A stretch of DNA of 32,000 nucleotides from an uncultured Spirochaetales bacterium (lineage in GTDB: Bacteria; Spirochaetota; Spirochaetia; DAHUYW01). A program made the translations under genes and the position numbers. Within the stretch, counting starts at the first letter, position 1, and each line of letters starts with the position of its first letter. Below the pieces are notes generated by a model that did no database searches, was not told the DNA's origin, and was given only the letters and a program-made list of their open reading frames with translations. Shown piece by piece: positions 15,303-32,000 of this stretch. Location of the stretch: the NCBI GenBank assembly GCA_964506755.1, contig CAZDMH010000014.1:2364-34363 (forward strand), given 5' to 3'.

Positions 15303-15365
15303 AGACGGGGCGATTCAGCGCGCCGGCCCTCATTGCGGTCGGGGACAAAACCTCAGGAGAAGTCA

Positions 15366-17538: not shown

Positions 17539-17549
17539 GGAGTTGCGAC

Positions 17550-18860
17550 GTGAAGAATATGATGATAGCACTTCGGAACCTGAACCGGCAGAAGAAACGG
17601 AGCTTCCTCCTTGGCGGCGCTATAGCCTTCGGAATACTCATCATCACCCTCATCAACGGGTTTGCCGGCAGCTTCGTTAACAACGTCAGCGAGAACTTCT
17701 CCCACCTCTTCGGTGGACAGATCTTCATCGACGGGTTCGAAAAGTCGCCCTCGGGGCGACGGATCTCGATCATACGTGATGACAGCGTCTTGACCGACGC
17801 AATCAAGGAATCCGGAATCCCTACAACCTACATTACGAAGGCATCGAGCTTCTCCGGGACGCTGATTTTCCAGAACAACACCGCTGCGCAGCAAGTTGTC
17901 GGAACGGACTGGCAGAAGGCGAGCTATATTCGCAGCAGGCTTACCCTCGTCAAAGGCAGCTTCGCCAACATGGACAACCCTCACGGCATCATAATCAGTG
18001 ACCGTGTCGCAAAGCAGCTGAAAGTCGAGCTCGGCGACACCATTCTCGCCCAGCTTCGAACGGCGACCGGTCAGCTCAACGTGGGTGAGTTCCAGGTTGC
18101 GGCGGTTAGTCATGACCCGGGGCTGTTCGGTTCCATCGCCGCGTACGCGAATCTGCAGTACGTCAACACTCTGCTGAATATTCGCAGCGGAGACTACCAG
18201 ACCCTCGGAATCTTTCTGACGCAGGGAGAGAACATGGATGTCGCTGCCGCCAAGCTTTACTCGGTGCTGAAGGGCAAGGTCCAGATGTTCAAACGTGAGA
18301 CGACGACCGCTTCGACAAATCCCTTCACGGCAATGCAGCGTGCGACGCAGAACGAAACCTGGAGCGGCACGAAATATCGCCTGTATACGCTCAACGATCG
18401 CCTGGCCGAGCTCAAACAGATCGTCGGAACACTCAATACATCAGGCTTGGTCATTCTGCTCATCCTTCTCGTGGTCATCATGATCGGAATAACGAACACC
18501 TTCCGCATGATCATGTACGAGAGGATCCGAGAGATCGGGACTATGAGGGCGCTCGGTATGCAGCGGCCCACGGTCCGAAATCTCTTTCTCCTCGAGGCGC
18601 TGTTCCTCTCGCTTGGTGGGACGGTGCTCGGGCTCATAGCCTCGGCGATCGTCATGACTCTCCTGCACCTGATCAATTTCGGTCTCAATACACCGCTCTT
18701 TCTTCTTCTGAAAGACGGCCATATGACCTTTGATCTGAAGGCGGGACAGTTGATCGGCAATCTCTTGATCGTTGCAGTACTGACAATTCTAGCCGCCTAT
18801 TTCCCAGCGCGCAAAGCTGCGCGGCTGAATCCAGCGGATGCGCTCCGCTCGACTCACTGA
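17550..18860 (+). CDS. FtsX/MacB-type ABC permease 2 (436 aa)
   Basis: N-terminus (V)KNMMIALRNLNRQKKRS followed by a TM segment. FtsX module FRMIMYERIREIGTMRALGMQRPTV. GTG 17550 has AGGGAG 8 nt upstream. The ORF-track 5' extension to 17028 is an Arg-rich out-of-frame overlap with permease 1. Confidence 0.85.
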   Translation: MKNMMIALRNLNRQKKRSFLLGGAIAFGILIITLINGFAGSFVNNVSENFSHLFGGQIFIDGFEKSPSGRRISIIRDDSVLTDAIKESGIPTTYITKASSFSGTLIFQNNTAAQQVVGTDWQKASYIRSRLTLVKGSFANMDNPHGIIISDRVAKQLKVELGDTILAQLRTATGQLNVGEFQVAAVSHDPGLFGSIAAYANLQYVNTLLNIRSGDYQTLGIFLTQGENMDVAAAKLYSVLKGKVQMFKRETTTASTNPFTAMQRATQNETWSGTKYRLYTLNDRLAELKQIVGTLNTSGLVILLILLVVIMIGITNTFRMIMYERIREIGTMRALGMQRPTVRNLFLLEALFLSLGGTVLGLIASAIVMTLLHLINFGLNTPLFLLLKDGHMTFDLKAGQLIGNLLIVAVLTILAAYFPARKAARLNPADALRSTH

Positions 18861-18876
18861 CAACCGGAGGCACATT

Positions 18877-19638
18877 ATGTTTCGCAAGTTCATGAAGACC
18901 ACGCTCCTTACAGCAACCCTGTTGACGGCCGCCTCCTTTGCGGCGTTGGCGCAGCAGCCGGATTTCCACAGGATTCTCCAGCGGGTAGACGAGCTGAACA
19001 ACTTCACGACTGATTTCTCAGCAGTGTTCACGGTCGTATCAGAGAAACCCGGTCAGGACCCGAGCGTTACGAGGGCACAGATCTTTCGTCGGGATCCGAA
19101 GAAGCAGTTCTTGATCGTCATCCTGAAGCCCGACACCCAGAAAGGGCAGGGATATCTCCAAGTGGACAACAACCTGTGGTTCTACGATCCTCAGAGCAGA
19201 CAATTCTCGCACTCCTCTCTCAAGGAAAACTTCCAGAGCTCTGACGCGAAGAACAGCGACTTCAACCAACAATCACTCGCGGAGGACTACACGGTCGCCG
19301 GTTCAAGCGACGGGAAACTCGGGATCTACCCGGTTTACGTTCTCGATCTCAAGGCGAAAAACAACGAGGTCACCTACCCACATGTCAAGCTCTGGGTGCG
19401 GAAGGATCTCGAAATCGTGCTCAAGGCCGAGGATTACAGCCTGTCGGATCGGCTTATGCGAACGGCCTACTATCCAAACTACGCGAAAATCGGGGACAAG
19501 TACTTCCCGTCGCGAATGTTGTTCATCGACAATCTCAATACGGGAAATAAGACCCAGATCACGGTGACGGATCCGTCGATTGCTGCGCTTCCCGACTATC
19601 TGTTTACCAAGGCCTATCTCGAACGAGTCAATCGTTAG
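18877..19638 (+). CDS. LolA-like 'outer membrane lipoprotein-sorting protein' family periplasmic protein (253 aa)
   Basis: GGAGG 6 nt upstream of ATG 18877. Signal peptide MFRKFMKTTLLTATLLTAASFAALA|QQ. The body (…LWFYDPQSRQF…YPVYVLDLKAK…VTYPHVKLWVRKDLEIVLKAEDYS…YFPSRMLFIDNL…) fits my memory of the LolA_like family, which is usually encoded next to FtsX-type ABC genes. Confidence 0.65.
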   Translation: MFRKFMKTTLLTATLLTAASFAALAQQPDFHRILQRVDELNNFTTDFSAVFTVVSEKPGQDPSVTRAQIFRRDPKKQFLIVILKPDTQKGQGYLQVDNNLWFYDPQSRQFSHSSLKENFQSSDAKNSDFNQQSLAEDYTVAGSSDGKLGIYPVYVLDLKAKNNEVTYPHVKLWVRKDLEIVLKAEDYSLSDRLMRTAYYPNYAKIGDKYFPSRMLFIDNLNTGNKTQITVTDPSIAALPDYLFTKAYLERVNR

Positions 19639-19655
19639 GTTGAGGAGGCGCGATC

Positions 19656-21188
19656 ATGAAACGAGCTTACACCGTGCTCTTGCTGCTTCTTCTCGCCGCA
19701 GGCGCATATTCCCAGGATCAATCTACCGGCTCGAATCCTCCTCCGATCCCGACGAATCCCGACTCGCTGTTCGGCTCACCGTCGACCTCCTCTGTCGAAG
19801 GTTCAGGCGGATCCACGGGTAGTGCCTCGAACGGAGGGGGAGACCAGACGGGCCCTTCCACTCAATCTCCGAGCTCTATGTTCCAGGGCGGGATGGTCGA
19901 GGATGTAACGAAGAGCAAGGCCGAGTCCAGTGCTACTGCGGCGACCTCCCTGCTCAAAAGCCAGGGTATCCAGTTCGGAGGAAGCATTGAATCGACCTAC
20001 ACCGCATACGGTTTCTGGCTCGGTGCGTATCCTGATCTGTCGAACCTTGCCAGCGGCTACACCGACCAGATGGTCCCCGTCCTGCAGGGCACGATGTTCT
20101 TCGATGCCCGGCCGGATCAGCATTTTCGGGTCTTCGGAAAAGCCAAGGCGAGCTATCCCTTTCAGGTTTCGGGTGGGACGAGCTCCACAGGCGTGACGAG
20201 CGCGCTTGGAGTGCCGCCCACACAGACAGTGACACCGAACATCAACATCTTCGAGCTCTACTCCGATTTCGACTACAAGAACAAACTCTATTTCCGCGTC
20301 GGCAAACAGGTGGTGAACTGGGGGGTCGGCTACTTCTTCAGCCCGGCGGACATCATCAGCGTTACGCCAATCGACCCCCAGAACCCGACGATCGAGCGTG
20401 AGGGACCAGTCGCCTTCAAGGTCAACATGCCGTTTGCGGAAGTCGACAACCTCTACCTGTACCTCGTTGCGAATCAGAGCTTCGCGACGGGGAGCGCATT
20501 TCACCTCAACGATGTTGCGGTTGCCCCCAAGGCGGAGTTCGTGGTCGGTGACTATGAGTTTGGCCTCGGTGGCTACTACCAACGCAACCAGCGCCCGAAA
20601 GCGATGGTGACTGCCACCGGCTCGATCGGCAAGATCGGCGTATTCGGAGAGGCGGTCGTCAGCAGGGGAGCCGACGGGACCCTTGTGCGACAGGGTGGAG
20701 CGATGGGTTACGAGACCTACACCGACACCACCACCCCCTACTTCCAAGGTACGGTGGGATTCAACTACATGCAGAGCGACTGGCACCTGTCCCTCTACGG
20801 CCAGTACTACTACAACGGACAGGGCTACGCGGACCCCACGCTCGAGAAAGAGGCCTATATCCTCTACGCCGGCCAGGTGGCCGGCACCCTCCCCGTCAGC
20901 CCTCAGCTCAGCCTGCAGGACCTCCAGCTGCCGGCGCGCAACTACGGGGCCGCGGTCGCAAGCTGGAGCAACATCAAGGATTCGAACGTTACGCTGTCGC
21001 TCTTTTGGGAAGGCAACTTCACCGACGGGTCAGGGATCGTGAGCCCGAGCGTGAGCTACAAGCTATTCGATCACGCGAGCCTCACGGCGGCAACACATAT
21101 CGCCTATGGTGGACAGAGCACCCAGTTCATGCAGACCGGGCACATGTCGGTGTCGCTTCAGGCCTCACTCGGTACCGGTGATTTCTAA
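19656..21188 (+). CDS. Predicted outer-membrane beta-barrel protein (510 aa), family unknown
   Basis: GAGGAGG upstream. Signal peptide MKRAYTVLLLLLLAAGAYS|QD. An S/G/P/T-rich low-complexity segment of about 55 aa. Then a long run of alternating aromatic/small-residue strands, a YFRVGKQVVNWGVGYFFSPADI motif, and a C-terminal ...SLGTGDF with terminal Phe. Confidence 0.6.
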   Translation: MKRAYTVLLLLLLAAGAYSQDQSTGSNPPPIPTNPDSLFGSPSTSSVEGSGGSTGSASNGGGDQTGPSTQSPSSMFQGGMVEDVTKSKAESSATAATSLLKSQGIQFGGSIESTYTAYGFWLGAYPDLSNLASGYTDQMVPVLQGTMFFDARPDQHFRVFGKAKASYPFQVSGGTSSTGVTSALGVPPTQTVTPNINIFELYSDFDYKNKLYFRVGKQVVNWGVGYFFSPADIISVTPIDPQNPTIEREGPVAFKVNMPFAEVDNLYLYLVANQSFATGSAFHLNDVAVAPKAEFVVGDYEFGLGGYYQRNQRPKAMVTATGSIGKIGVFGEAVVSRGADGTLVRQGGAMGYETYTDTTTPYFQGTVGFNYMQSDWHLSLYGQYYYNGQGYADPTLEKEAYILYAGQVAGTLPVSPQLSLQDLQLPARNYGAAVASWSNIKDSNVTLSLFWEGNFTDGSGIVSPSVSYKLFDHASLTAATHIAYGGQSTQFMQTGHMSVSLQASLGTGDF

Positions 21189-21222: not shown

Positions 21223-21981
21223 CTACGTCAGAGTGCGAAGGTCGAGAACGGCGCCGCTCTCGAATGAACCGCTGTAGACAAGTGAGAGAATTCGGCGGGC
21301 CGCCTCTGTCGGAGAGCTTAGCTTCCCCTCCTCCTTCAATGTGACGAAACGAGCCTTCGCCGGGAAGAGCGCCTCATCTACCTGGCGGATCCGGTTCTGC
21401 ATGGGAGTATCAAGCACGCCAGGAGCGATCGCGAGAATGCGAACCGGATTCTTCGCCTTCTCCTGCTCGAGGGCGAGGCAGCGCCCGAACATGTCCAGTC
21501 CGGCCTTCGAGGCGCAATATGCGCTCATGCCATCATAGGGATGCTGAGCCGCTCCGGAGGTGATATTCACGATCGTGCGCTGGGCGCCCCAATCTTGCGT
21601 GAAGCGGATGAACATACTCGATAGAAGCATGCACGCAGTCAGGTTCACGGCCACGTGACCTATGATGCCGCGATCATCCAGCTGTCCCACCGGAGCGAGC
21701 GGCCCCTCCACCGCAGCATTGTTGATGAGAACGATTTCCGAATCTTCGTCGTTGTTGAGGTGTGCAAAAACCTCGGAAGCAGCCGCTGCGACTTCGGAGC
21801 TTCGCGAGAGGTCTATACGGTGATCGAAGTACCGTCCGCCCCGATCAAGCACCCTCTCTTCGAGTGCTCGGTTGCCCCTGCGCGAGACGCCGATTACGGT
21901 TGTGTCTGCCTCCCGTGAGGAGAGATCGGCGAAAGCCTCCCCGAGCCCGGACGAGACGCCGGTAATGATAAAAAACCGCAT
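21223..21981 (-). CDS. Short-chain dehydrogenase/reductase (SDR) family oxidoreductase (252 aa)
   Basis: Cofactor-binding motif TGVSSGLG, LINNAAV, and catalytic YCASK. ATG lies 3 nt after the upstream stop. Confidence 0.85.
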   Translation of the reverse strand: MRFFIITGVSSGLGEAFADLSSREADTTVIGVSRRGNRALEERVLDRGGRYFDHRIDLSRSSEVAAAASEVFAHLNNDEDSEIVLINNAAVEGPLAPVGQLDDRGIIGHVAVNLTACMLLSSMFIRFTQDWGAQRTIVNITSGAAQHPYDGMSAYCASKAGLDMFGRCLALEQEKAKNPVRILAIAPGVLDTPMQNRIRQVDEALFPAKARFVTLKEEGKLSSPTEAARRILSLVYSGSFESGAVLDLRTLT

Positions 21982-21984
21982 CAG

Positions 21985-24900
21985 CTATTTCGATTTCGGC
22001 AGCAACTCGAGAATCAGCTCTACCTCTCCCCGGCTGAGCTTCGTTGCCTGAGCGATCTGCGGCACCTTCCAGCCCTGATGCGCAAGCCGTGTAACCATGT
22101 CGCGCGTCGACAAGGAAGGGGCTCCCTTGTCCTTCTTTCCCTGCTTTGCCTCGTCCTTCAGGAGAGAACCGAGGAGCTTGACCTGTTCCTCGGCCTGCTT
22201 GCTGATCTCCTCCAGCCTCGTCTCCGTCCGCGCGAGCCACTCCCGGGCCTGTTGCATCTTCTCGGTTCGTCCCTCGATATCCTTCAGTACGGAACCGAGA
22301 GAAGAAAGCTGCTCCACCGCGCTGTCGGCATCCTTTTTGCTCTTTGCGAGAACCTCGATTCGCTGCGAAAGATCGTCGAGTCGCTTCGGCATTGCCTTTA
22401 CGCCGTTTTCGAGGCTCTGGAGCTGTTGCTCGAGGCTCTCCAACTGCTGGAAGTTCTTGTCCACTCCGTCGGTCGTCGTTTCGAGGATCTTGTCCTTCCC
22501 TTCGAGCCGTTCGTACTTGGCAAATACATCTTTCTCCAGCTCCTCGAGCTTTCGGATTTCCGCTTGAACCGCCTGCAGCTCGTCATGGCTCCCAGTGACC
22601 TGATCGAGCTTCGCATCGACCGACTGGGAGATTGTGATCAGTTTCTTGAAATCGCCTTCCATGACCTCTATGCGATGCTTCTCCGCGAGGAATTTCGCAA
22701 GCTTCGAGGAAACGTCATCTCCGAGCTTCTTGGTCTTCTGAAAGCTCTTCTCGAGATCCTTGAGCTCTTTGGTCTCCGCCTTAACCGCCTCGAGCTGCTC
22801 CTTGAGCTGCTCGATATCCTCAGTCAAAGTCACCTTCAGCGTATCCGCTCGGTTGAAGATCTTCGTTTGCGCAATGAAATCCTTCTGTTTCTTCTCGATC
22901 TCGGCAAGGTTCTGCGAGAGTAGCTTGTAGCTTTCTTCGATCTTCGAGGCCAGCCGTTTCTGGGATTCCTCCATACGGTCGTAGCTCTCCTGGGACGAGG
23001 AGCGCAAATCTCTGAGACGCTGATCGGCCTCGCCCGCGAGCTCGTGCGTCTTCGCCTGGAGATCTTTCATGAACAGATCGTACTGCTGCCGGAACTCCGA
23101 GATGGCGTCCGCGCTCCTCTGTTTCAAATCGGCTTCCAGCCGGTCGACGTCTGCGCCGACGCGCGCAAGATCTTCCCTTAGCCTCGTTCGCTCCTCTTCG
23201 CTGCCCGTTATGAGCTCCCCTTTTTCGTGCTCGAACTCGACTCGGAGCTCCTCGAGGTCCTTGCCTATCCTGTCCTCGGCCTCCTTGACCTGGGCAAGGA
23301 TCTTTTCCTGCCATGAGGCAACATCACTCCTCGTGGCGTCGAGCATTGCCTGGATGTCGCTCTTCCGAGCCTCGAGCTGCTCGGTGATTCCACCGAACTC
23401 CTGCTCAACCGTGCGTTCGTACTGAGATACCCGTTCGCCGACCCGCTCCGAGTGGCCCTCTAACTCCTGCGAAATGAGATTCATAGCCGCCTGCCGCGCT
23501 TCGGCTATTCGTTCGCGCATTTCAGTGCTGAAGCGGTCGAGAGTTTCCGTTCTGCTCTGGTCGGCCTCCGACGCTATTTCGTCCATTCGGCTACCGATAC
23601 TCGACTGCCACTCTTCGAGCCGCTCGTTGAGGCCGTCGGTACGCACCTTGAGGTCGGCGAAGAAATCATCCTCGAAAACCTGGAGCTTCTCCGAGACATT
23701 CTCGTAGGCCCGGGACTTCAAGTCGGTAAGACCGTGCTCAACCTCTTCAACCGAAGCGTGGATAACGGCGAGCTCCTCCTCGACTCTTTGGCGTTCGGCT
23801 TCACGACGCTCGGCAAGCTGCTTCGTCCATTCGTCGAAATCCGTTTCGATCTTTATCCTTACCTTTTCCATGATCGACCGAAGGTTCCGGTCGAGCTCTT
23901 CGATATCGATGTTGACCGCCTCGATCTTTCCCATTCGATATGCTACGTCGGCCTCGTAGTCGGCGACCTTGGTTTCCACTTCGGTAAGCCGACCCGTCAT
24001 ATCTTCTTCGAATCTTCCGACCTGACTCGAGAAGCGCTCGATGACGTCGTCGGCTAGCCCGTTGTTTCGCTCATCTATTTCTCCGAGCGAAGTCCGGAAG
24101 GAGCTCTCCTTCTCCTCAATGAGCTCTTCGACATTGTTCAACCGATCGCGAAGAGAGGATTCGAGGTCGCGAACGGTGATGTTCATCTCGCTCACGAAAG
24201 CATTGAGTTCGTTTCTCTGCTCCTCTTTGCGCTTTGCGGTTTCGGAAGCGAGGGTAGTCAGGTTGTTGTCGACATCCGCAGAAAAAACGCCATAGCGCTC
24301 CGAGAACTCCCCTTCCTTGTCTTCGATTAGCTTCTGAATTTCCGCCTGCCAAACCGTAATCTGAGATCGGCTCTCGCCAAACATCTGGTCGAGCTCCTTG
24401 CGCGACTCTTCGAGACTCGCCTTCGTTTCGTTGAACGAGCTCGTGAGCAGCTTCTGGACCTCCCGTGCCCTACTCTCAATGTGACTTTTCAGCTGCACGA
24501 AGACGTCATCTTCGAGATTGCGCGCCTTCTCGGCAACATCGCGGATGTTCTCCTGGTAGCTTTGCTCTATGGTGTTCACCCGCTCCTGGAACGCGTCGAG
24601 TTTCTCGATGATGGTTCGTTCTGTTTCCACCACCTGTTCTTTCAACTCGGAATGGAGCTTTGCGATGCGATCCGTTACGCCTTTGCCGTTTTCCGTCGCT
24701 TTGTCGAGCAGCAAATTGAGGTTCGTCTCAAACTGGCCCCGGAGCTCATCGCCGGTGCCCTGCGCGTTCTTGATGAATCCCTGAAACACCTGTTCCAGGT
24801 TGCGTACTGTCTCCGCCTCCATGCCGTCGCGGCGCGCCTCGAGGCCGGCGAGGTACTCGGAGAAGCGTTCGACTGACTTCTCCGCCTTCTCGAGCTCCTT

Positions 24901-25452
24901 CGCTATGGCCGATGCGTTGTCCTTGCTGACCTTCATGACGTTGCCCGACACAACCTTAAGCTCGCGTTCGTTGATCTTGGCGAACTCGTCTTTCAGCTCA
25001 GGGATGCTCTTCTCAATTCCTTGCATCCTGACAACGGCATCTTTGATGCGCTTCCCGACCGCATCGACGAACTCCGATTCCTGATGAAGGCGCTTGAGGT
25101 TCTCTTCTACCCGTCCGGTCATCTGGACGAGATCGGCCAAAGCCTGGTCATATTCGTTCATTCGAGTGCTGAGCTTCTCGAATCCCTTGGCTCGATCGCC
25201 AATGCCGTCCTCCACATTCGAAATGTGCTTGACGATCTCTTTTGCAGTCCGCTGATGAACGTCGAGCTCTATCGAGAGGTTCTTGAGCTCCGTCGTTTTC
25301 GATTCGACGAACTCACTCAGCTGATCTCTGACCTTGTCGGAGAAGCGTTTCACCTTGTCGAGTGATCTGTTGTTGCGGTCCAGCTGCCGATAAACGACGA
25401 GAACGAGTATCACTATTAATAGAGTGATAATGTTTCCTATCGTCAGAATCAT
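21985..25452 (-). CDS. 1155-aa membrane-anchored coiled-coil protein with a C-terminal helix-turn-helix-like tail
   Basis: GGGAGAG upstream of the ATG. N-terminal TM ILTIGNIITLLIVILVLVV is followed by YRQLDRNNRSLDKVKR (positive-inside rule, so the body is cytoplasmic). About 1080 aa are E/K/R/L/Q-rich, Pro-poor sequence. The last ~40 aa read TRDMVTRLAHQGWKVPQIAQATKLSRGEVELILELL. Confidence 0.8.
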   Translation of the reverse strand: MILTIGNIITLLIVILVLVVYRQLDRNNRSLDKVKRFSDKVRDQLSEFVESKTTELKNLSIELDVHQRTAKEIVKHISNVEDGIGDRAKGFEKLSTRMNEYDQALADLVQMTGRVEENLKRLHQESEFVDAVGKRIKDAVVRMQGIEKSIPELKDEFAKINERELKVVSGNVMKVSKDNASAIAKELEKAEKSVERFSEYLAGLEARRDGMEAETVRNLEQVFQGFIKNAQGTGDELRGQFETNLNLLLDKATENGKGVTDRIAKLHSELKEQVVETERTIIEKLDAFQERVNTIEQSYQENIRDVAEKARNLEDDVFVQLKSHIESRAREVQKLLTSSFNETKASLEESRKELDQMFGESRSQITVWQAEIQKLIEDKEGEFSERYGVFSADVDNNLTTLASETAKRKEEQRNELNAFVSEMNITVRDLESSLRDRLNNVEELIEEKESSFRTSLGEIDERNNGLADDVIERFSSQVGRFEEDMTGRLTEVETKVADYEADVAYRMGKIEAVNIDIEELDRNLRSIMEKVRIKIETDFDEWTKQLAERREAERQRVEEELAVIHASVEEVEHGLTDLKSRAYENVSEKLQVFEDDFFADLKVRTDGLNERLEEWQSSIGSRMDEIASEADQSRTETLDRFSTEMRERIAEARQAAMNLISQELEGHSERVGERVSQYERTVEQEFGGITEQLEARKSDIQAMLDATRSDVASWQEKILAQVKEAEDRIGKDLEELRVEFEHEKGELITGSEEERTRLREDLARVGADVDRLEADLKQRSADAISEFRQQYDLFMKDLQAKTHELAGEADQRLRDLRSSSQESYDRMEESQKRLASKIEESYKLLSQNLAEIEKKQKDFIAQTKIFNRADTLKVTLTEDIEQLKEQLEAVKAETKELKDLEKSFQKTKKLGDDVSSKLAKFLAEKHRIEVMEGDFKKLITISQSVDAKLDQVTGSHDELQAVQAEIRKLEELEKDVFAKYERLEGKDKILETTTDGVDKNFQQLESLEQQLQSLENGVKAMPKRLDDLSQRIEVLAKSKKDADSAVEQLSSLGSVLKDIEGRTEKMQQAREWLARTETRLEEISKQAEEQVKLLGSLLKDEAKQGKKDKGAPSLSTRDMVTRLAHQGWKVPQIAQATKLSRGEVELILELLPKSK

Positions 25453-25467
25453 GGTCTCTCCCAGTTT

Positions 25468-26133
25468 TCAAGAGGTGTGGATATACTTCATGATCGAGTC
25501 GCGCAGATCTCCGTACGAGGAGAAGGTGAGATCGGCCTTCGAATCTATCACCTTCCTGCTCGATAGATGCGCAGACTTCATGCCAACCTCTTTCGCACCA
25601 AGTATATCATACTTGTAGTGATTTCCAACATACATAATCTTGTCGGCAGGGAGCCCGAGGCGCTTCGAGAGCTCGAGGAACGGTTCCGGATTCGGCTTGA
25701 GATACCCGGTTTCTTCGGAGGAAAAGGCACAATCAACGAGGTCGTCAAGTCCGAGATACTTGAGCTTGCGTTCCACCGGAAAGTCGGAGATGACAGCAAT
25801 CCGGAGCCCGCCGCTGTGTAGCCCTTCGAGACAATTGCGCACGCCGCTGTAGGCAGAAATCCCTTGGAAGGTTTCCTCCCAGCGACCGTAGATGTTCCGC
25901 TCGATGAGCTCAGCCGCGTGGTTCGTGGTTACGCGAAGCGAGACTGCGAGTAGCTCCGCCTGAAGGCCGCGGAAGTTGTGTATTGGCCGGATCATCCTGA
26001 TGGTTCTACGGATTTTTCCGAAGTGGCGCACGAGCCGCGCGTGGGTAAGGAAGAACGGGATGGATCGAAGATACATCTTGTGATTTGGGTACAGGGTACC
26101 GTCGAGGTCGAAGGCTACCGCCTGTATGTCCAT
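25468..26133 (-). CDS. HAD superfamily hydrolase (221 aa)
   Basis: Motif I AFDLDGTLY (DxDxT), motif II VISDF, a conserved Lys (YLKPNPEPF), and motif IV-like VGNHYKYDILGA. Confidence 0.8.
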   Translation of the reverse strand: MDIQAVAFDLDGTLYPNHKMYLRSIPFFLTHARLVRHFGKIRRTIRMIRPIHNFRGLQAELLAVSLRVTTNHAAELIERNIYGRWEETFQGISAYSGVRNCLEGLHSGGLRIAVISDFPVERKLKYLGLDDLVDCAFSSEETGYLKPNPEPFLELSKRLGLPADKIMYVGNHYKYDILGAKEVGMKSAHLSSRKVIDSKADLTFSSYGDLRDSIMKYIHTS

Positions 26134-26134
26134 T

Positions 26135-27289
26135 CTACCTCGCAGTATCTGCTTGTATTACGTACTGCAGTGTTCCTTGTGCCACCTGGTCGCCGCCAAC
26201 CGGCTGAAAGCGCCACTTTTCCATCCAAGCCTCCAGCGCGCTGTTCAACTCAGGATAAACCAACGACGGCGTGATATTCAAGACATTGACGTTTCCAGAG
26301 GGTGAGACGCTGAACGCGATTTTCAGCTCGATAGTTGGAGGAATCTCATTCAGATACTGCTCCGGAATCTTGAACGGTTCCGGCTGCTGCATCACACGTC
26401 GTTGCGCCGAATCGCTCTTCCATTGGATGTTTGGTCCAGTCGAGGAGGGCGCGGATTGCGAACCGACGCTTCCTGATCCGCCTGTGGAGCCGCCTGCCGC
26501 GGCACCCGATTGACCTCCGGCGGCGCCGGACGCTCCGGATGTCGACGGCGCGCCTTGACTACTCGACGAGCTGCCCGGAGAGGGGCTCGAGGAACCGGCC
26601 GCCGCCGCAAGATCTGAGTTGAAGATGCTGGTGGGGGCCTGAGTCTTGGGACCGTAGAAGGTCTGCGACTGACCCTGGTCCGTTTCAGTGCCGGCTCCGC
26701 CGGCCCCTTGTGGCGGTGACGAGCTCTGCTGTGCTCCTTGCGGATAGTTGACGCCGGGCCTGGCCGACTGCGGGCCGGTTACGGGACCGCTGCGCTGTGA
26801 TGTCGGGCCGGTGACGCCGGTCAAGTTCGTTGACGTTCCGCCACCCGTGCTTGTCATGCTCTGCGGGATATTGGGGCCTCGAGGAATCGCCGTAGCCTGT
26901 GACGGGACCGGCGAGGGTGCCGCAGAAGGCTGTTGCCGGGAGGCGACCGAGGGGCTCGCCGGCACCTTCGTCGCGGGCTGATCGGACGGGGAGACCACAC
27001 TATCGGGGGAAGAGACACTGGTCTGCGCGGCTGACTGAGATTCTTCGGTCGACGCCGTCGGCTGCCGGGCAGATGCTTTCTCGGGCGAGGCCGCTTTTGT
27101 CTGGGTGGCGGTGAGCTCGCTGAGAGAATTGCCTTCCAGGTTGACGTATACCGACACCGGCGGGGAGATACTCCGGAAGGGGGCCGCCGGAGGCCAATGC
27201 AGCCCCATCAACAGGACGAAAATAACGGCGTAACCGACGAGCACGATGCCTGTGCTGAGGGCAAGCCGCTCTCGGTCCTTCAAATCCAT
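26135..27289 (-). CDS. TonB/TolA-like energy-transducer protein (384 aa) with a very long uncharged low-complexity linker
   Basis: GGAGAG upstream of the ATG. N-terminal TM LALSTGIVLVGYAVIFVLLMGL. A linker of about 225 aa rich in S/P/G/A/Q/T. C-terminal TonB_C-like domain IELKIAFSVSPSGNVNVLNITPS..YPELNSALEAWMEKWRFQP. Located directly after exbB-exbD. Confidence 0.7.
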   Translation of the reverse strand: MDLKDRERLALSTGIVLVGYAVIFVLLMGLHWPPAAPFRSISPPVSVYVNLEGNSLSELTATQTKAASPEKASARQPTASTEESQSAAQTSVSSPDSVVSPSDQPATKVPASPSVASRQQPSAAPSPVPSQATAIPRGPNIPQSMTSTGGGTSTNLTGVTGPTSQRSGPVTGPQSARPGVNYPQGAQQSSSPPQGAGGAGTETDQGQSQTFYGPKTQAPTSIFNSDLAAAAGSSSPSPGSSSSSQGAPSTSGASGAAGGQSGAAAGGSTGGSGSVGSQSAPSSTGPNIQWKSDSAQRRVMQQPEPFKIPEQYLNEIPPTIELKIAFSVSPSGNVNVLNITPSLVYPELNSALEAWMEKWRFQPVGGDQVAQGTLQYVIQADTAR

Positions 27290-27304
27290 CGACTCTCCGC
27301 TCTC

Positions 27305-27721
27305 CTATTGACTCGGCCCGACCGGGAGCAACTTCAAGTTGACTCCCGTGAATCCGTTCTTCCTTAGATCGTCGAGCACCTTGATCATCAAGTCATAAGA
27401 TATACTCTTGTCTCCCTCCAAGACAACTGAATGGATCGATTCACGCTCCTTCGCGGTGAGCTGCGACAAACGCGTGTCCAAGCTCTGAAGGTCGTATTTC
27501 TCCTTGTTGAGGTAGATCTCGCTCGGTGAGACCACCGTCACGACGAGTCGGGTCATGACGACAGGCTCGGCGGTTGAGGATTGCGGAAGTAGCAGGCGAA
27601 TGCCCGGTGTGACGACGAAGGTGCTCGTCACCATGAAGAAGAACACGAGTTGGAATGCGATATCGATCATGGGAATGAGGTTGATCTGATTGATCGGCGC
27701 GAGACGTCTTCGAAACTGCAT
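27305..27721 (-). CDS. exbD: ExbD/TolR family biopolymer transport protein (138 aa)
   Basis: INLIPMIDIAFQLVFFFMV TM signature and typical size. The start abuts the exbB stop with no gap. Confidence 0.85.
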   Translation of the reverse strand: MQFRRRLAPINQINLIPMIDIAFQLVFFFMVTSTFVVTPGIRLLLPQSSTAEPVVMTRLVVTVVSPSEIYLNKEKYDLQSLDTRLSQLTAKERESIHSVVLEGDKSISYDLMIKVLDDLRKNGFTGVNLKLLPVGPSQ

Positions 27722-28330
27722 CTACCTTCCCTTCACCAGAAGCAGAACCATCTCGCCTACTCGGTTTTCGAGTCTGATGATGATATGATTCACCTTCGAG
27801 ACGAGATGATTGTAGAATGCGATCGAAGGTATCGCAACGATAATCCCAGCGGCTGTGGTAAGCAACGCTACGGCGATCCCCCGGCCCAGCACGCTTGGAT
27901 CGTTTACGACGCCGCTTGATCCGAGTACCCCGAACGCCTGTATGGTACCTACGACGGTACCAAGGAGGCCCAGCAGGGTCGCGACATTGGCGATTGTTCC
28001 GAGAGTCGGGAGGAAGCGCTCGAGGCGAGGAATCTCGAGGTTTGCCGCGGCCAAGATCGCCTCTTTGATTGCCGATTCGGAATGCTCGTGGTGCTCGATT
28101 CCGACCCGCATGAGGTTCGTAATAGGAGCCGGGCTGCTTTCACATATACTGAGCGCTTCGTCGAAATGACCTTTTTCCAGCGTTGCCCTCAACCGACTAA
28201 TCATCTGATCTTCATCGACTCGGATTCGGCGGAAAAAGATCAAGCGCTCGATAATGATCACGGCGGCAATGAGAGACAGGAGGATGATGACTATCATCAC
28301 GATGCCGCCCTTCTGAATGAGAAACACCAT
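27722..28330 (-). CDS. exbB: MotA/TolQ/ExbB family proton channel (202 aa)
   Basis: Three TM segments and the LGTIANVATLLGLLGTVVGTIQAF signature. GAGGAG lies 8 nt upstream of the ATG. Confidence 0.85.
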   Translation of the reverse strand: MVFLIQKGGIVMIVIILLSLIAAVIIIERLIFFRRIRVDEDQMISRLRATLEKGHFDEALSICESSPAPITNLMRVGIEHHEHSESAIKEAILAAANLEIPRLERFLPTLGTIANVATLLGLLGTVVGTIQAFGVLGSSGVVNDPSVLGRGIAVALLTTAAGIIVAIPSIAFYNHLVSKVNHIIIRLENRVGEMVLLLVKGR

Positions 28331-28373
28331 TCTAGTTACTCCTCATAAGGATTTCTCGCCATAGTTGGACCGT

Positions 28374-30017
28374 CTACAGAGATATTCGAGTGGTCACGGT
28401 GACCCGGAATCCGGGCTCGTAGTAGTAGTTCCATGTCTTTCGGCCGGAGCTGAGCGGAGACAGCAGGTCGTTCATGTTCAAATGGAAGCTCACGCCGCTC
28501 GATACACGAAGGTATCCCGAAAGGGATATATTGGGCATCTCTGCGGCGAACGGCGAAATGGTGTCCAGGTTCATCGTTCCTGACAACGCGCCGCCGTATC
28601 GACCGTTTGTGTCACTCAACTCTGCATCGACGTTGAAGCTGCTCAAAGGTACGAATGGTCCCGGATTCAGGAAGTTGCCTTTCCAGCCGAGCTTCAACGA
28701 GAACGGACCGGTGGGATCCCACGAGAGCTCCGCCGACGGACCGAGCACCGTCGCACGGCCCTGCGTGAAGGAAAACAATCCGGTACCGGCCTGCGCCGAA
28801 CCGGGGAGTACGGCTGCGCTTGCGTCGGAGAAATCCACGCCGCTCTGAAGCCCGAGCGCAGGACCGAAATGCCAGCTCGCGCTCGCTCCTCCATACCACT
28901 CGAGCGAAGGCACCAGGTTCGTGCTCTGATCGAGGAACGGATACTCTGTCCAGAGGTCGAAGTAGCTCTGACGATCCACTCGATAGCCTCCATAGAGGCG
29001 GTACGTCAGAAGGTCCTTGTACACCCCGTCGAGCTCGAGGGAGAACGGGATCGCCCACCGAATGGTCTTTTCCCATTCCGCTCCGACGCTCCCTTTGAGG
29101 GTGAGGGCCAGGGGAAGCTCGGCACTCATGGAGAGCGTGCCGCCTGCAGTCTGTCCAACTGACTGCACCGGTCCGGTAGTTTGCGTAGCGCTATAGTACC
29201 CGGTGAGCGTGCCGTTCACCTTCGAGAAATTCAGGCCGAGATTCAGCGCCGGGTTTACCGCCAACTCCTGTGCGTTCAGGGCATTTGTCGGAGAAGGACC
29301 GGCGAGACTCATATCTCCACTTGTCGCACCGATGCTCACGCCGAAGGTGAATGGTGAGGCGCCGGCGTACTCCGCTTTCGCCGCCCCGGAAATGAATCGA
29401 TGGGTGACCGAGCTGTAGGTGTTCGCGTTTCCCTGGAGCCCGTCTTCAGTCTCACGGTAATAGTCGTGGGTATCGAAGTTGAACACGTTCTTCGCGGAAT
29501 AGGTCAGGCTGCCGACGAGCGCATCCTTCCGATTGAAGAAACCGGCACCGGCCGGTTGGAAGGTGCTCGTCGACGAAGGTGCCAGATAGCCATCGAGTCG
29601 TTCGTGCGAGAATTCGATGTTGAACCTCGGGTCGCTTCCGAGCTTGTAGAGGGTAATGTCCCCGATGATGTGGTTCATCGATCCGGCACCGATCAAGCCG
29701 TCACTGAAGAAACTCGCCTGAGACTGGGAAGTGGTCTGTACCGAAGTCCCGTTCGGACCCTGAGTCGGGACTGGAACATCGTAGGCGGCGCTTCCGAGCT
29801 TGATGTTCTGTACCTGGGGCAGAGCGACGTCGATTTGCGGCAATGAAGGGGCCTGTTCCTCAGGCAGCGGAGTGTCGATCTTCTCCTGAGTAACGTCTTG
29901 CACTTTGAGCAGGATCGGCGGAAGGACGATTTCGGGCTCGGACGGCTCCACCTGCTGCGCCGGGAGCGCTGCCGCGGCGACCAGCGCTACGAATAGCCCA
30001 TAGACAACCTCTTTCAC
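28374..30017 (-). CDS. Secreted protein of unknown family (547 aa), predicted outer-membrane beta-barrel
   Basis: GTG start at 30017 forms a GTGA overlap with the TPR gene stop. Signal peptide (V)KEVVYGLFVALVAAAALPA|QQ. A P/E/Q-rich N-terminal extension is followed by more than 450 aa rich in G/S/T/Y/F/L with an alternating pattern, ending ...GFRVTVTTRISL. I recognise no family motif. Confidence 0.55.
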   Translation of the reverse strand: MKEVVYGLFVALVAAAALPAQQVEPSEPEIVLPPILLKVQDVTQEKIDTPLPEEQAPSLPQIDVALPQVQNIKLGSAAYDVPVPTQGPNGTSVQTTSQSQASFFSDGLIGAGSMNHIIGDITLYKLGSDPRFNIEFSHERLDGYLAPSSTSTFQPAGAGFFNRKDALVGSLTYSAKNVFNFDTHDYYRETEDGLQGNANTYSSVTHRFISGAAKAEYAGASPFTFGVSIGATSGDMSLAGPSPTNALNAQELAVNPALNLGLNFSKVNGTLTGYYSATQTTGPVQSVGQTAGGTLSMSAELPLALTLKGSVGAEWEKTIRWAIPFSLELDGVYKDLLTYRLYGGYRVDRQSYFDLWTEYPFLDQSTNLVPSLEWYGGASASWHFGPALGLQSGVDFSDASAAVLPGSAQAGTGLFSFTQGRATVLGPSAELSWDPTGPFSLKLGWKGNFLNPGPFVPLSSFNVDAELSDTNGRYGGALSGTMNLDTISPFAAEMPNISLSGYLRVSSGVSFHLNMNDLLSPLSSGRKTWNYYYEPGFRVTVTTRISL

Positions 30018-32000
30018 TGAGCGCCCTCCAGCAGTTTCTTCGCCTCCACCGCCCATTCGGTGTTGGGGAAGTTGTTCTGGATCTTGTCGACCATCGCCCT
30101 GACGTCTGAGAGATTACCTGAAAGCTTCGCCATCTCGGCCGCCCGGTAGAGAGAGGCGGCGGTCAAGTCTCTGTTCGCAGGGTCGAGTGTGGCCGCGGCA
30201 AGAAAATCGTTCGCCGCCTTTCTGAGATCCCCGTTGCGATACGCGTACTCGCCGAGGAGATACTGAGCCTGGGCCGCGTTCGTCGGGTCTTGGCTCTCCT
30301 TTTCGATGACCTGATGAAGGAGAGGAACCGCTTGATCCTGTTTCGCTCCGGACTTGTAAATGTAGATCCGCGCCAGGTCGACCATTGCCGTGCGCCCCGC
30401 CTTCGTATCGGCGCCTTTGTCCCTACCGATCGTAACGAGCAATTCGGCCTCTTTCTCCGATTGCCCGGTGAGGATGTAGCGTATCTTCTGCGCCTTCTCT
30501 GCGGCCCCTACGGCGGCCGCTTCCTTAGGATAGACCGCTTCGAGCTCAGTATAGAGCTTCAAGGCCTGGCGCAAGTCTCCGCGCTGCGAATAGACCTCGG
30601 CCGTACGCTGCATCGCATCGGCTCGGTAGGAGCTGTCCTTGTGGTCATCAATCAACTTCTGCCAGAGCAGGACAGCCCCGAAATCCTCGCCTGCCGCCAG
30701 CGATGCACGTCCGCCCCAGTACAGCGCGGCGGCTACCCGGTCACCGTTGGGGAATTGAAGACGATAGTCTGTGAAAGCGGCCTTGGCCTCGTCGTATTTC
30801 TTGTTCTCGTACAGCAACTGGGCTCGCTTGTAAAGTGCATCTGCAACAAGGGGGCTGTTGGGATACTCGGCCGCGAGCTTCTTGTAGGCCGCTGCGGAGT
30901 CTGAAATCTTCTTCTCAGCTGCGAGCACACCTGCGTACTCGAACATCGCGTCATCGGCGTAGTCGGACTTCGGGTTGTCGACGAAGATGTTCTGAAAGGC
31001 CACAGCGGCATCCTGCAACTTCCCTCCGGTCTCCAGGCTCTTTGCGTACATGTAGAGTCCCTTTTGCCGTTCACCAGCATTCTGGCCGTTCGCATACTGA
31101 AGGAAGTAGCGGCCCGCTCTGTCGTAATTCTTGAGAAGGTAGGCACACCATCCTGCGAGGTAGAGCGTGCGACTCTTTAGGTCACTCGACGCATTGCCGT
31201 GGATGATCTCGTCAAACAGCGACGCCGCCGTACTGTAGTCCGCCAGGCGGTATGAGGCCCAGCCCTGGTAGTACAGAGCATATGGCACGATGATCGAGAG
31301 GCCGGCCGAGTCCAGAGTCTTCGTTGTCAGAGGCCGAAGCAAGTCGAGCGCATCCGAGTACTTCTTATCGGAAAGCAGCGCAAGACCACGCATGTAGCGA
31401 ACGATGAGCTCGGCGCGGACGTCCTTCGTTGCGAGGTTGGGGTTGTCCTTCAACACCTTCTGACTCTCATCGAGCACCGATGTGTAGTCCTGGCTTTCGA
31501 AGTAGAGCTTCGTGAGGTCAACCTGCGCCGCCACATCCTTGCCGACGAGTGGAAGGTATTCTTTCAATGTGGAAATGGCCTTGTCGACCTGTCCAAGACG
31601 GATATACGCAAGCGATTTGAGTCTCAGCATCTTCGCCGCATATCCGCCGGCCGTCGCAGCCGAAAACTGCGCGTCTATTGCCGCGACCGTCTGTTGATAG
31701 TCACCAAGCTCGTAGATTGCATACGCCTCGAGATAGCCCGCCTCGCTTCGGTAGGGCGAATTCGGGTAGCTGTCAATTAGCTTCGCGAAGGAGCTTCGGG
31801 CATCTTCATAGTCCCCGCCCTGCAGCTCGAAGCCGGCGAGGCGAAACCGGAGCAGGTCCTGGTATTCCGAAGCATTGGGCAGCGCCACCTTCAGGATCGC
31901 GACCGCCTGAGAGAGTCTCTTGGTTTTGGCATAGATCTCGGCCAGATAGAGCGGAACCAAGGGGCTGACTTTTCCTTGCGAGCGTAGACCCCATATGCGC
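30014..32000 (-). CDS. Large TPR-repeat protein with YbgF(CpoB)/BamD-type repeats. 5' end lies outside the window (about 660 aa visible).
   Basis: The reading frame stays open to position 32000; the ORF-track 'M' at 31960 is a TTG inside the frame. At least 8 repeats carry the xP(N/K)(S/T/G)xxxx(A/E)A hallmark (SYPNSPYRSEA, EYPNSPLVADA, QFPNGDRVAAA, NFPNTEWAVEA, DNPKSDYADDA, ...). Confidence 0.8.
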   Translation of the reverse strand, partial: RIWGLRSQGKVSPLVPLYLAEIYAKTKRLSQAVAILKVALPNASEYQDLLRFRLAGFELQGGDYEDARSSFAKLIDSYPNSPYRSEAGYLEAYAIYELGDYQQTVAAIDAQFSAATAGGYAAKMLRLKSLAYIRLGQVDKAISTLKEYLPLVGKDVAAQVDLTKLYFESQDYTSVLDESQKVLKDNPNLATKDVRAELIVRYMRGLALLSDKKYSDALDLLRPLTTKTLDSAGLSIIVPYALYYQGWASYRLADYSTAASLFDEIIHGNASSDLKSRTLYLAGWCAYLLKNYDRAGRYFLQYANGQNAGERQKGLYMYAKSLETGGKLQDAAVAFQNIFVDNPKSDYADDAMFEYAGVLAAEKKISDSAAAYKKLAAEYPNSPLVADALYKRAQLLYENKKYDEAKAAFTDYRLQFPNGDRVAAALYWGGRASLAAGEDFGAVLLWQKLIDDHKDSSYRADAMQRTAEVYSQRGDLRQALKLYTELEAVYPKEAAAVGAAEKAQKIRYILTGQSEKEAELLVTIGRDKGADTKAGRTAMVDLARIYIYKSGAKQDQAVPLLHQVIEKESQDPTNAAQAQYLLGEYAYRNGDLRKAANDFLAAATLDPANRDLTAASLYRAAEMAKLSGNLSDVRAMVDKIQNNFPNTEWAVEAKKLLEGAQ

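Follow-up and report, generated by a model that had tools for sequence, protein, structure and literature searches.

A long SpiroCoCo-family protein of spirochaetes with a predicted membrane anchor and a C-terminal tail most similar to DUF2802 and DUF6115

Judged by its sequence, the 1155-residue protein encoded at 21985..25452 on the minus strand of the 32,000-nucleotide stretch of DNA analysed here (the window) is an ordinary member of SpiroCoCo (NF047514, NF047515; NF047516, LA_3659 family), a family that is already named in NCBIfam without a described function. Its C-terminal tail is most similar to DUF2802, the domain of FipA, and to DUF6115, with both of which it appears to be homologous. 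We tentatively suggest that the protein is a FipA-like, membrane-anchored scaffold or spacer that recruits other proteins, possibly for FlhF and the placement of flagella. We favor this reading over a tether to DNA because the tail is nearest to DUF2802 and DUF6115, shares the spacing of glycine, glutamate and leucine found in FipA, and has an acidic third helix.

The gene is an uninterrupted ORF of 1155 codons (ORF list and translation) with a TAG stop at 21985-21987; the original prediction gave no strand for it, and the coordinates of all protein features below likewise refer to the minus strand. As read from the sequence, its ATG lies at 25452, 15 nt past the stop of an upstream HAD gene, and is preceded at a distance of 4 nt by a Shine-Dalgarno-like GGGAGAG (25456..25462, minus strand). 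Both NCBIfam domain models match well above their cut-offs: SpiroCoCo_N (NF047514) with 240.4 bits (cut-off 75; E 1.6e-71) over residues 8-228 and profile positions 1-218 of 221, and SpiroCoCo_C (NF047515) with 345.7 bits (cut-off 125; E 2.2e-103) over residues 837-1148 and profile positions 1-313 of 313. SpiroCoCo is thus the spirochaete-restricted family of long coiled-coil proteins that the original prediction had mentioned. That prediction also took membership in a functionally characterized family as grounds against itself; the protein does belong to a named family, but one that is not functionally characterized, and a literature search for "SpiroCoCo" or "LA_3659" found no paper. The phyletic profile agrees with this restriction to spirochaetes. 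Relatives occur in 401 species genomes, and the 80 loci listed of these are all from Spirochaetota (source names among the matches listed include Sediminispirochaeta, Marispirochaeta, Alkalispirochaeta, Treponema and Hollandina), suggesting that, within this listed set, the family is confined to spirochaetes. Full-length homologues are 33-79% identical to the target. Both termini are nearly invariant in the family, and the middle ranges from ~835 to 2718 aa, an approximately three-fold change in length; in one homologue it is lengthened by tandem 80-residue repeats.

The only hydrophobic segment of the protein spans residues 1-27, with Kyte-Doolittle 19-residue windows above 1.6 starting solely at positions 1-8. 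It contains a single TM helix (residues 6-25, 25378..25437; hydropathy and an AF2 helix at 6-25) that is kept across 118 homologues. The five residues ahead of this helix are all uncharged, and residues 22-36 (RQLDRNNRSLDKVKR) have a net charge of +4. They fall within a juxtamembrane motif, YRQLDRNNRSLDKVKRF (residues 21-37; 25342..25392), that is basic by charge count (net +4) and near-invariant, with R22, D25, N28, S30 and K33 unchanged in 44 sequences. The helix and its positive flank were therefore correctly anticipated. Following the positive-inside rule (charge 0 ahead of the TM helix and +4 behind it), we predict an N-out/C-in signal anchor with a cytoplasmic body. The conserved N-terminal domain recognized by the SpiroCoCo_N / LA_3659_fam model (NCBIfam match, residues 8-228) occupies 24769..25431, and block conservation is 0.59-0.72 over residues 1-150.

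This topology bears on a reading in which the helical body would span the periplasm as a TolA-like connector within the adjacent Tol/Ton-like motor. TolA has an N-terminal TM helix and a long helical domain, a combination that the target shares, and the target gene lies downstream of ExbB/ExbD. However, the distribution of charge around the TM helix points to a cytoplasmic body, the homologous FipA is N-out/C-in by experiment, and the gene cluster already includes a TonB/TolA-like gene (26135-27289). Moreover, the target gene is kept where the Tol-like cluster is missing, and a helical rod of ~1,080 residues would, by rough estimate, far exceed the width of the periplasm. We regard a periplasmic connector as scarcely credible.

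Between its conserved ends, the protein is predicted to be a rod. The body (~1,080 residues) is acidic, and AF2 models it as nearly all alpha-helical, with about six long helices separated by breaks, although confidence for the full-length target is low (pLDDT 62.7, pTM 0.24). Only five prolines occur in the 1155 residues (P151, P1022, P1112, P1131 and P1152), in line with the nearly proline-free body of ~1080 residues described originally, and the composition is rich in E (14.3%), L (10.2%), K (8.6%) and R (7.5%). The accompanying description of the body as heptad-compatible applies to part of it. Residues ~31-110 and ~811-1099 have a heptad-like hydrophobic period of 3.46-3.5, but in the central ~700 residues the period is 3.62-3.68 and the sequence resembles itself at spacings of 11/22 residues, a hendecad or apolipoprotein-like pattern. 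Each segment exceeded all 200 of its shuffled versions in the periodicity test, and autocorrelation of the rod peaks at lags 22, 11, 18 and 29. A match of the rod to Apolipoprotein A1/A4/E is sub-threshold (66 bits; cut-off 90). The family's variation in length is located in this central rod (residues ~130-810, 23023..25065), which is net acidic, consists of amphipathic helices with 11/22-residue quasi-repeats (periodicity and autocorrelation), and shows low conservation and indels.

Two conserved islands that are not coil-like interrupt the rod. The first, ..LKSRAYENVSEKLQVFEDDFFADL.. (residues 571-601, 23650..23742), is supported by invariance, block conservation (0.72) and the AF2 model; L575, K579, L590, E594 and F597 are invariant in 44 sequences, and AF2 predicts that the helix breaks here, at 585-590. 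The second covers residues 918-957 and lies within the conserved C-terminal domain (SpiroCoCo_C model, residues 837-1148, 22009..22944), which is supported by the NCBIfam match, periodicity and conservation. A linker that AF2 leaves non-helical, ..DEAKQGKKDKGAPSLS.. (residues 1100-1113, 22114..22155), joins the rod to the tail. It is flexible and rich in basic residues, Gly and Pro, and its sequence varies across homologues with "GAP" kept. Overall, hydropathy, charge and AF2 uphold the architecture first proposed for this protein, namely a membrane anchor, a predicted cytoplasmic helical body and an HTH-shaped tail.

The tail itself (residues 1114-1151, 22000..22113; Pfam scans, hhalign and AF2) forms three helices in the AF2 model (1114-1125, 1130-1137 and 1141-1149; pLDDT 77-89), with G1127, L1139, E1143 and L1146 as key positions. 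It was within this region, at residues 1116-1151, that the original prediction saw a resolvase/Hin-type HTH and, from it, a possible membrane-to-DNA tether in which the HTH would bind the chromosome and the rod would link the nucleoid to the inner membrane. The three-helix fold of that proposal survives, with weak matches. Foldseek places HTHs of resolvases (Tn3 and gamma-delta), Pax proteins and the G20C small terminase, all DNA-binding, at the top (E 0.08-0.3), and the Pax5/6 paired domain aligns at an rmsd of 1.6-2.1 A over 44-46 columns with 33-34% identity. Weak Pfam matches to HTH_23 (10/32 family tails), HTH_7 (7/32, best E 6.8e-4) and Sigma70_r4_2 (5/32) are likewise consistent with a tether, as are R1117 and R1141, conserved in 44 sequences. 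However, the PDB fold search with the tail returned no match at E 0.001 and the PDB sequence search none of significance, and HTH_7 (PF02796) scores 12.5 bits (E 0.16) against the target itself, under its gathering cut-off of 23.8.

The nearest sequence relatives of the tail lie elsewhere. DUF2802 and DUF6115 each match 32/32 family tails (DUF2802 at E <= 0.01; best E 1.7e-9 and 2e-8, respectively), more strongly than the true HTH families, which match just 5-10 of 32 at E ~3e-4 or weaker. For the target, the DUF2802 (PF10975) score is 27.1-27.5 bits (E 3.5e-6 to 4.6e-6), below the gathering cut-off of 33.5, and the DUF6115 (PF19610) score is 25.8 bits (E 1.6e-5), just below the cut-off of 27 that two homologues pass (P0112, 28.9 bits; P0116, 30.7 bits). 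In FipA, DUF2802 binds protein. Furthermore, helix 3 of the tail (RGEVELILEL) would be an atypical recognition helix: E1143, E1145 and E1149 are invariant, one face is hydrophobic, and the net charge across 32 tails averages -2 (range -3 to -1). We therefore consider the tether quite improbable and do not expect the tail to bind DNA.

FipA, an interaction partner of FlhF in polar-flagellated gamma-proteobacteria, is the one characterized DUF2802 protein, and it is through this domain that it binds FlhF, a GTPase (eLife 2024, PMC11620751). We derived FipA fragments of Vibrio, Shewanella and Pseudomonas from published mutagenesis primers, checked them against Vibrio DUF2802 proteins, and found that they align without gaps to target residues 1120-1154. 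Positions shared by the target and FipA are G1127 (G110), L1139 (Pp L116 / Sp L118), E1143 (E126), E1145, L1146 (L129), L1148 and L1150. The spacing from G1127 to E1143 (+16) and L1146 (+19) is identical in the Vp, Sp and Pp proteins; among 44 SpiroCoCo sequences, E1143 and L1146 never vary and conservation of G1127 is at least 90%. A comparison of profiles by hhalign gives the same register over 33 ungapped columns (P 2.8e-4), with a probability of 41% from short, shallow profiles. Two of the shared positions, G110 and L129, are required for FlhF binding by V. parahaemolyticus FipA (PMC11620751). These residues could also maintain the fold, as the glycine of the HTH turn and a core leucine, in which case their conservation shows a shared fold and not a shared partner.

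The genes surrounding the target suggest other candidate partners. An HAD-family hydrolase (25468..26133, minus strand; Pfam Hydrolase/HAD_2; stop codon 25468-25470) lies immediately upstream and is found there, on the same strand, in 67/71 related loci, including Treponema, showing that it is the conserved partner gene of the target. Beyond it is a Tol/Ton-like cluster (26135..30056, minus strand; Pfam and NCBIfam), comprising genes for a TonB-like protein (26135-27289), ExbD/TolR (27305-27721) and ExbB/TolQ (27722-28330), all on the minus strand, and for a 560-aa protein that matches no family in Pfam or NCBIfam; a YbgF-like TPR protein (30014-31960) precedes the cluster. Co-transcription of the target with Tol-like genes, as proposed earlier, is plausible given the tight packing of genes in the window, but the linkage does not extend to the family as a whole. 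ExbB lies upstream in 42/56 loci with enough flank, and the cluster is missing in the other 14/56, including Treponema; the Tol-like linkage is lineage-specific. Downstream, the start codon of an SDR oxidoreductase (21223..21981, minus strand) falls 3 nt past the target stop. It is not a conserved neighbor, and other loci have grpE (47/67) or an ABC transporter in this position. The conserved neighborhood thus consists of the HAD hydrolase, often the Tol-like cluster, and grpE-dnaK-dnaJ. No flagellar gene adjoins the target in the window or in four loci with listed genes (L001, L002, L083 and L084); the remaining loci were scanned for the window's own neighbor genes only.

These neighbors raise the prospect of a generic cytoplasmic scaffold or cytoskeletal element at the membrane, akin to EzrA, DivIVA or FilP, that would serve division, the envelope or cell shape and whose tail would have a binding partner different from FlhF, with a possible link to the Tol-like machine or to the upstream HAD enzyme. 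EzrA-type factors share the plan of a TM helix with a long helical body behind it in the cytoplasm. The target gene is packed tightly with ExbB/ExbD/TonB-like and YbgF-like genes, with the Tol-like cluster in 42/56 loci and the HAD gene in 67/71, and the islands at 571-601 and 918-957 could be sites for partners. Nonetheless, neither EzrA, DivIVA nor any other cytoskeletal family in Pfam matches at E <= 0.1 (for EzrA, this holds in NCBIfam as well), the gene persists in the 14/56 loci that lack the Tol-like cluster, and the only functionally characterized relative of any part of the target is FipA. A scaffold of this generic kind is a credible proposal that we nevertheless rate as rather unlikely.

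Under the FipA-like reading that we prefer, the target would act as a very long FipA, a membrane-anchored scaffold or spacer. The rod, probably a dimer or bundle, would present a protein-binding tail at a set distance from the anchor, and the tail would bring in or place a partner in the cytoplasm, FlhF being the candidate of greatest specificity. According to published work, both FlhF and FlhG are encoded by spirochaetes, and the spirochaete FlhF GTPase is described as polar or subpolar and as controlling the number and position of periplasmic flagella; in the literature consulted, FlhG is the sole factor shown to control polar localization of FlhF in spirochaetes, and a membrane anchor for FlhF is not named (bioRxiv 10.64898/2026.04.08.717139). 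For the role of FlhF in spirochaetes, Zhang et al. 2020 is cited both there and in the FipA study (PMC11620751), according to which spirochaetes lack FipA homologues. The position of the target outside flagellar loci, its DUF2802 score below cut-off and this reported absence of FipA all count against an FlhF partner. We speculate further that the protein is a giant spirochaete FipA homologue whose rod, of evolving length, is a ruler or scaffold that sets the sites and the spacing at which periplasmic flagellar motors assemble near the cell pole, and that DUF2802, DUF6115 and the SpiroCoCo tail make up one cross-phylum superfamily of FlhF anchors. In such a ruler, the rod, its length evolving through repeat expansion, would separate the conserved anchor from the FlhF-binding tail. 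We hold this extended version to be improbable.

SpiroCoCo, as a phylum-wide, highly conserved giant protein with a FipA-like domain and predicted topology, provides a concrete candidate for a membrane anchor of FlhF. Even if the link to FlhF fails, an anatomy has been assigned to a large unstudied family, the readings of the protein as a DNA-binding HTH and as Tol-coupled have been corrected, and its conserved partner is the HAD hydrolase.

Compared with known systems, the target matches other SpiroCoCo proteins in TM helix, rod and tail, in spirochaete distribution and in gene neighborhood; its length and sequence fall within the family range, and nothing material differs. EzrA-type scaffolds likewise have an N-terminal TM helix and then a long, all-helical cytoplasmic body, but the target is predicted to be N-out with a 5-residue stub, its rod is about twice as long with an 11-residue periodic core, and a DUF2802-like module forms its C-terminal end. 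When the AF2 tail is superposed on HTHs of resolvase/Hin, the Pax paired domain and small terminase, the fit is 0.5-2.1 A over 34-46 residues, and the E-helix, arm and HTH of resolvases are echoed by the target's succession of long helix, linker and HTH. Sequence matches to such HTHs fall short of every curated cut-off. In contrast to these DNA-binding modules, the target's helix 3 is acidic and hydrophobic and not basic and polar, and the protein contains no catalytic or DNA-related domain. The C-terminal ~100 residues, coil and HTH-like tail together, align to positions 34-133 of the 134-position DUF6115 profile, which is far shorter than the 1155-aa target and belongs to an uncharacterized family, so this match adds no mechanism. 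FipA is also much smaller (~130-165 aa with a ~30-residue coil, against 1155 aa with ~1,070 helical residues between TM helix and tail), and its gene immediately follows the flhA-flhF-flhG-fliA-che operon; the target gene is instead flanked by that of the HAD hydrolase on one side and by an SDR gene or grpE on the other. Both proteins nevertheless begin with a short external N-terminus and one TM helix, continue as a coil in the cytoplasm and carry a DUF2802-type module at their C-terminal end or close to it, a layout that is predicted for the target and mapped by experiment for FipA (residues 1-5 periplasmic, TM 6-28). Within the module, G110, L122, E126 and L129 of Vp FipA correspond to G1127, L1139, E1143 and L1146 of the target, and the motif E-x-E-L-h-L-x-L is common to both.

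The gene at positions 21985-25452 of the minus strand, referred to here as the target, is a single unbroken open reading frame (ORF) of 1155 codons in both the ORF list and its translation. Its ATG (25452) lies 4 nt downstream of a Shine-Dalgarno-like element, GGGAGAG, and 15 nt after the stop codon of a HAD hydrolase gene, and 3 nt separate its TAG stop from the start codon (ATG) of the SDR oxidoreductase gene that follows; promoter and terminator scans gave no informative excess over shuffles. The encoded protein contains 14.3% Glu, 5 prolines and zero cysteine, and its net charge is -62. Hydrophobicity is confined to the N terminus, where 19-residue Kyte-Doolittle windows above 1.6 start at positions 1-8. 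No charged residue precedes the transmembrane (TM) helix and residues 22-36 sum to +4, so the body is predicted by the positive-inside rule to be cytoplasmic. A full-length AlphaFold2 model built on a 44-sequence alignment predicts an almost wholly helical chain, comprising the TM helix (residues 6-25), rod helices (31-81, 99-274, 289-584, 591-727, 740-918 and 957-1099), a linker (1100-1113) and three short tail helices (1114-1125, 1130-1137 and 1141-1149). Confidence in this model is low (pLDDT 62.7, pTM 0.24), so it is usable for secondary structure only, and neither for tertiary arrangement nor for a fold search. The ORF, N-terminal TM helix, basic flank and low-proline helical body of the original prediction are all borne out by the ORF list, hydropathy, charge and AlphaFold2.

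By its sequence matches to NCBIfam, the target is an unambiguous member of the SpiroCoCo family, the spirochaete-restricted family of long coiled-coil proteins mentioned in the original prediction. Both models score far above their cut-offs: SpiroCoCo_C (NF047515) aligns over its entire 313-position length to residues 837-1148 (345.7 bits, cut-off 125), and SpiroCoCo_N (NF047514), which is duplicated as the LA_3659 family model, aligns to residues 8-228 (240.4 bits, cut-off 75). We regard this assignment and the anatomy described here as close to certain. Full-length homologues with 33-79% identity occur in Sediminispirochaeta, Marispirochaeta, Alkalispirochaeta, Treponema and many uncultured Spirochaetales, and when one genome per species was scanned, 401 genomes proved to hold a relative; the 80 of these that were listed are all spirochaetes. 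Literature searches found no paper containing "SpiroCoCo" or "LA_3659", and nothing on BB0512, a possible Borrelia member. SpiroCoCo is therefore a named, curated family whose function has no published account in the literature searched, and the target is an ordinary new member of it. Three Pfam accessions (PF28217.1, PF27974.1 and PF27241.1) are pre-assigned to many SpiroCoCo proteins and were never returned by our Pfam scans; the local Pfam copy may lack them.

Both ends of SpiroCoCo proteins are nearly invariant. The near-invariant motif YRQLDRNNRSLEKVKRY follows the TM helix, and the extreme C terminus reads GAP-x4-R(D/E)xVxKLAHQGWxVxEIAxxTKLSRGEVELILEL. Block conservation is 0.6-0.7 across residues 1-150 and 840-1155 and 0.2-0.45, with many indels, across residues 150-830, where residues 571-600 form a conserved island at a predicted helix break. 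Family lengths range from ~835 to 2718 aa, with the tail at the very end in every case. In the longest member (P0349, Hollandina sp., 2718 aa), the extra length comes from a tandemly repeated unit of 80 residues (z = 41 in autocorrelation; lags 80, 160, 240 and onward), and a 2084-aa Treponema sp. homologue (P0323) has autocorrelation maxima at lags 80, 120 and 160. Repeat expansion is therefore the route by which rod length evolves in these giant members. Conserved ends joined by a length-variable rod are what would be expected of a tether, spacer or ruler.

The heptad-compatible body of the original prediction holds in part. A heptad-like hydrophobic period (3.46-3.5) is restricted to residues ~31-110 and ~811-1099, whereas the central ~700 residues have a period of 3.62-3.68; each segment beats all 200 shuffles. 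A peak at 3.63-3.64 also appears in 8/9 homologues tested, the exception being a short 946-aa member with its peak at 3.46. The central region is most self-similar at lags 22, 11, 18 and 29, a pattern that explains a sub-threshold Pfam match to Apolipoprotein A1/A4/E (66 bits, cut-off 90). We rejected an apolipoprotein- or synuclein-like region of 11-mer amphipathic repeats lying on the membrane: the central region is strongly acidic (155 D/E versus 96 K/R), and its K/R residues are just marginally nearer the hydrophobic face than its D/E. Matches to ZorA, LmuB and JetC in PADLOC and to SMC and Rad50 in NCBIfam involve coiled-coil arms only, lie far under cut-offs and were dismissed as compositional.

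The target closes a tightly packed minus-strand run, with the gene for the SDR oxidoreductase (21223-21981) coming after it. The run comprises genes for a YbgF-like TPR protein (30014-31960), a 560-aa protein (28374-30056), ExbB/TolQ (27722-28330), ExbD/TolR (27305-27721), a TonB-like protein (26135-27289) and, directly preceding the target, the HAD hydrolase (25468-26133). Of the related loci whose flanks are long enough to judge, 67/71 have the HAD gene immediately upstream, 42/56 have ExbB upstream and 47/67 have grpE downstream; the SDR gene is not a conserved neighbour. On a Treponema contig and a 920-kb metagenome contig, the Tol-like block is absent and the HAD-SpiroCoCo pair is kept. 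The linkage to a Tol-like motor is thus common but lineage-specific, and the proposed coupling is only partly supported.

Several neighbours have features of their own. From a TTG start at 31960, the YbgF-like ORF encodes 648 aa here, versus 962-974 aa in two syntenic loci (L001 and L002); the ORF finder rates it complete, which requires an in-frame stop within 31961-32000, and the gene may be split, frameshifted or otherwise started. The 384-aa TonB/TolA-like protein has an N-terminal TM helix, a ~250-residue low-complexity spacer rich in Ser, Pro, Gly, Ala and Gln, and a weak TonB_C match (15.5-20 bits, under cut-offs). The 560-aa protein has no match in Pfam, NCBIfam or PADLOC; its position between the TPR and ExbB genes is kept in most related loci, and it may serve the Tol-like system as an outer-membrane component. 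On the plus strand, 15165-21188 encodes a MacB-type ABC transporter (an ATPase ORF and two FtsX/MacB_PCD permeases), a LolA-like protein (18838-19638) and a 510-aa protein that matches no family (19656-21188); in one related locus (L001) a similar FtsX/MacB/ABC set adjoins the SpiroCoCo gene in the opposite orientation. Elsewhere in the window, an M23 peptidase gene (2108-3148, minus strand) is directly followed by genes for a bactofilin (1606-2094, minus strand), a DUF327 protein (1130-1618, minus strand) and a PSP1-domain protein (138-1082). Bactofilin and M23 peptidase pairs are typical of helical cell-shape loci, such as Helicobacter CcmA/Csd, and this pair could be relevant to spirochaete morphology.

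The C-terminal tail (residues 1114-1151) had been read as a helix-turn-helix (HTH)-like module that might tether the membrane to DNA. The fold was right: AlphaFold2 of the last 85 residues gives pLDDT 77-89 across a three-helix module, and the tail is, as modeled, an HTH. Its closest PDB folds are Tn3 and gamma-delta resolvase, the Pax5/6 paired domain (1.6-2.1 A over 44-46 columns), SIRV1 ORF55 and small-terminase HTH; no PDB fold match reached E 0.001 (best 0.08), and PDB sequence searches gave no significant match. The would-be DNA-reading helix, RGEVELILEL, has invariant glutamates at three positions and one hydrophobic face, and the mean net charge of the third helix across 32 diverse family tails is -2. 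In the same tails, the matches to HTH_23 (10/32), HTH_7 (7/32) and Sigma70_r4_2 (5/32) have E values of 3e-4 or weaker, and DUF2802 and DUF6115 each match 32/32 (best E 1.7e-9 and 2e-8). With the tail nearest these two families and its third helix acidic, a DNA tether lacks support and seems improbable. Protein binding is the more likely role, given the acidic and hydrophobic composition of the helix and the documented use of the DUF2802 domain in FipA.

DUF2802 is the defining domain of FipA, a partner of the GTPase FlhF in polar-flagellated gamma-proteobacteria (eLife 2024, PMC11620751). FipA binds FlhF and aids its polar recruitment; G110, E126 and L129 are invariant, and FlhF binding is lost on substitution G110A or L129A (PMC11620751). 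In V. parahaemolyticus the protein is 163 aa long: residues 1-5 lie in the periplasm, residues 6-28 form the TM helix, and a short coil in the cytoplasm leads to the DUF2802 at the C terminus (PMC11620751). This mapped topology and the charge distribution of the target both contradict a periplasmic, TolA-like connector, which we consider highly improbable.

In Pfam, the last 101 residues of the target match DUF2802 (E 3.5e-6) and DUF6115 (E 1.6e-5), just under both cut-offs; for DUF6115, two homologues score above the gathering threshold. A query trimmed to the final 55 residues still gives 4e-5, so coiled-coil bias does not account for the match. We rebuilt FipA sequences around the key residues from published mutagenesis primers: ATKMVQLG110ADINELIEECELPKAE126AEL129MLSLQKKL (Vibrio), KMVGLG106AGVDE.IKECEL118PKAEAEL125LIRLHRK* (Shewanella) and LVGMG104ASIDELTQSCGL116TQAEAEL123MSKVYRAP* (Pseudomonas). 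These align without gaps to the target tail, V1120-TRLAHQG1127WKVPQIAQATKL1139SRGE1143VEL1146ILELLPKSK*, sharing the Gly, a Leu at +12, a Glu at +16 and an E-L-h-L-x-L run. A homologue search with the Vibrio fragment validated it by returning seven short Vibrio fragments annotated as DUF2802 domain-containing; full-length FipA was not among its matches, and the resulting profile is thin. With hhalign, two small profiles align in the same register over 33 columns (P 2.8e-4, probability 41%). A tail-profile search of 1.84 billion representative proteins gave 790 matches at E <= 1e-3, of which the best 150 are all SpiroCoCo, with no small FipA-like protein among them; a word-indexed search returned only contig-end fragments of the family. 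At the level of sequence, these comparisons support common ancestry of the tail with DUF2802 and DUF6115, and the key residues of FipA are kept.

We therefore propose, tentatively and at somewhat less than even likelihood, that the target would act as a much-extended FipA: a scaffold or spacer, anchored in the membrane, that presents a protein-recruiting tail. Scores under both Pfam cut-offs count against this, the conserved Gly and Leu may serve only to maintain the fold, and the gene does not sit in a flagellar locus: the genes beside SpiroCoCo in the window and in four related loci (L001, L002, L083 and L084) include no flagellar gene. A general scaffold for division, envelope or cell shape that binds some other partner is a possible, if rather unlikely, alternative. 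For an extended FipA, FlhF would be the most specific candidate partner, a step we hold to be doubtful; in B. burgdorferi, FlhF has a polar or subpolar location and determines the number and position of flagella (bioRxiv 10.64898/2026.04.08.717139). That the rod serves as a ruler for flagellar placement is unlikely. FlhF of C. jejuni reportedly binds TonB2 (PMC13640089), and here the gene for the target, with its FipA-like tail, closely follows those for ExbB, ExbD and a TonB-like protein, which may be coincidence. FipA homologues were described as absent from spirochaetes (PMC11620751), which also counts against an extended FipA. The link between the SpiroCoCo tail and the FlhF-binding domain of FipA, which may be the new element here, contradicts that published absence and makes SpiroCoCo a testable candidate for FlhF anchoring in spirochaetes.
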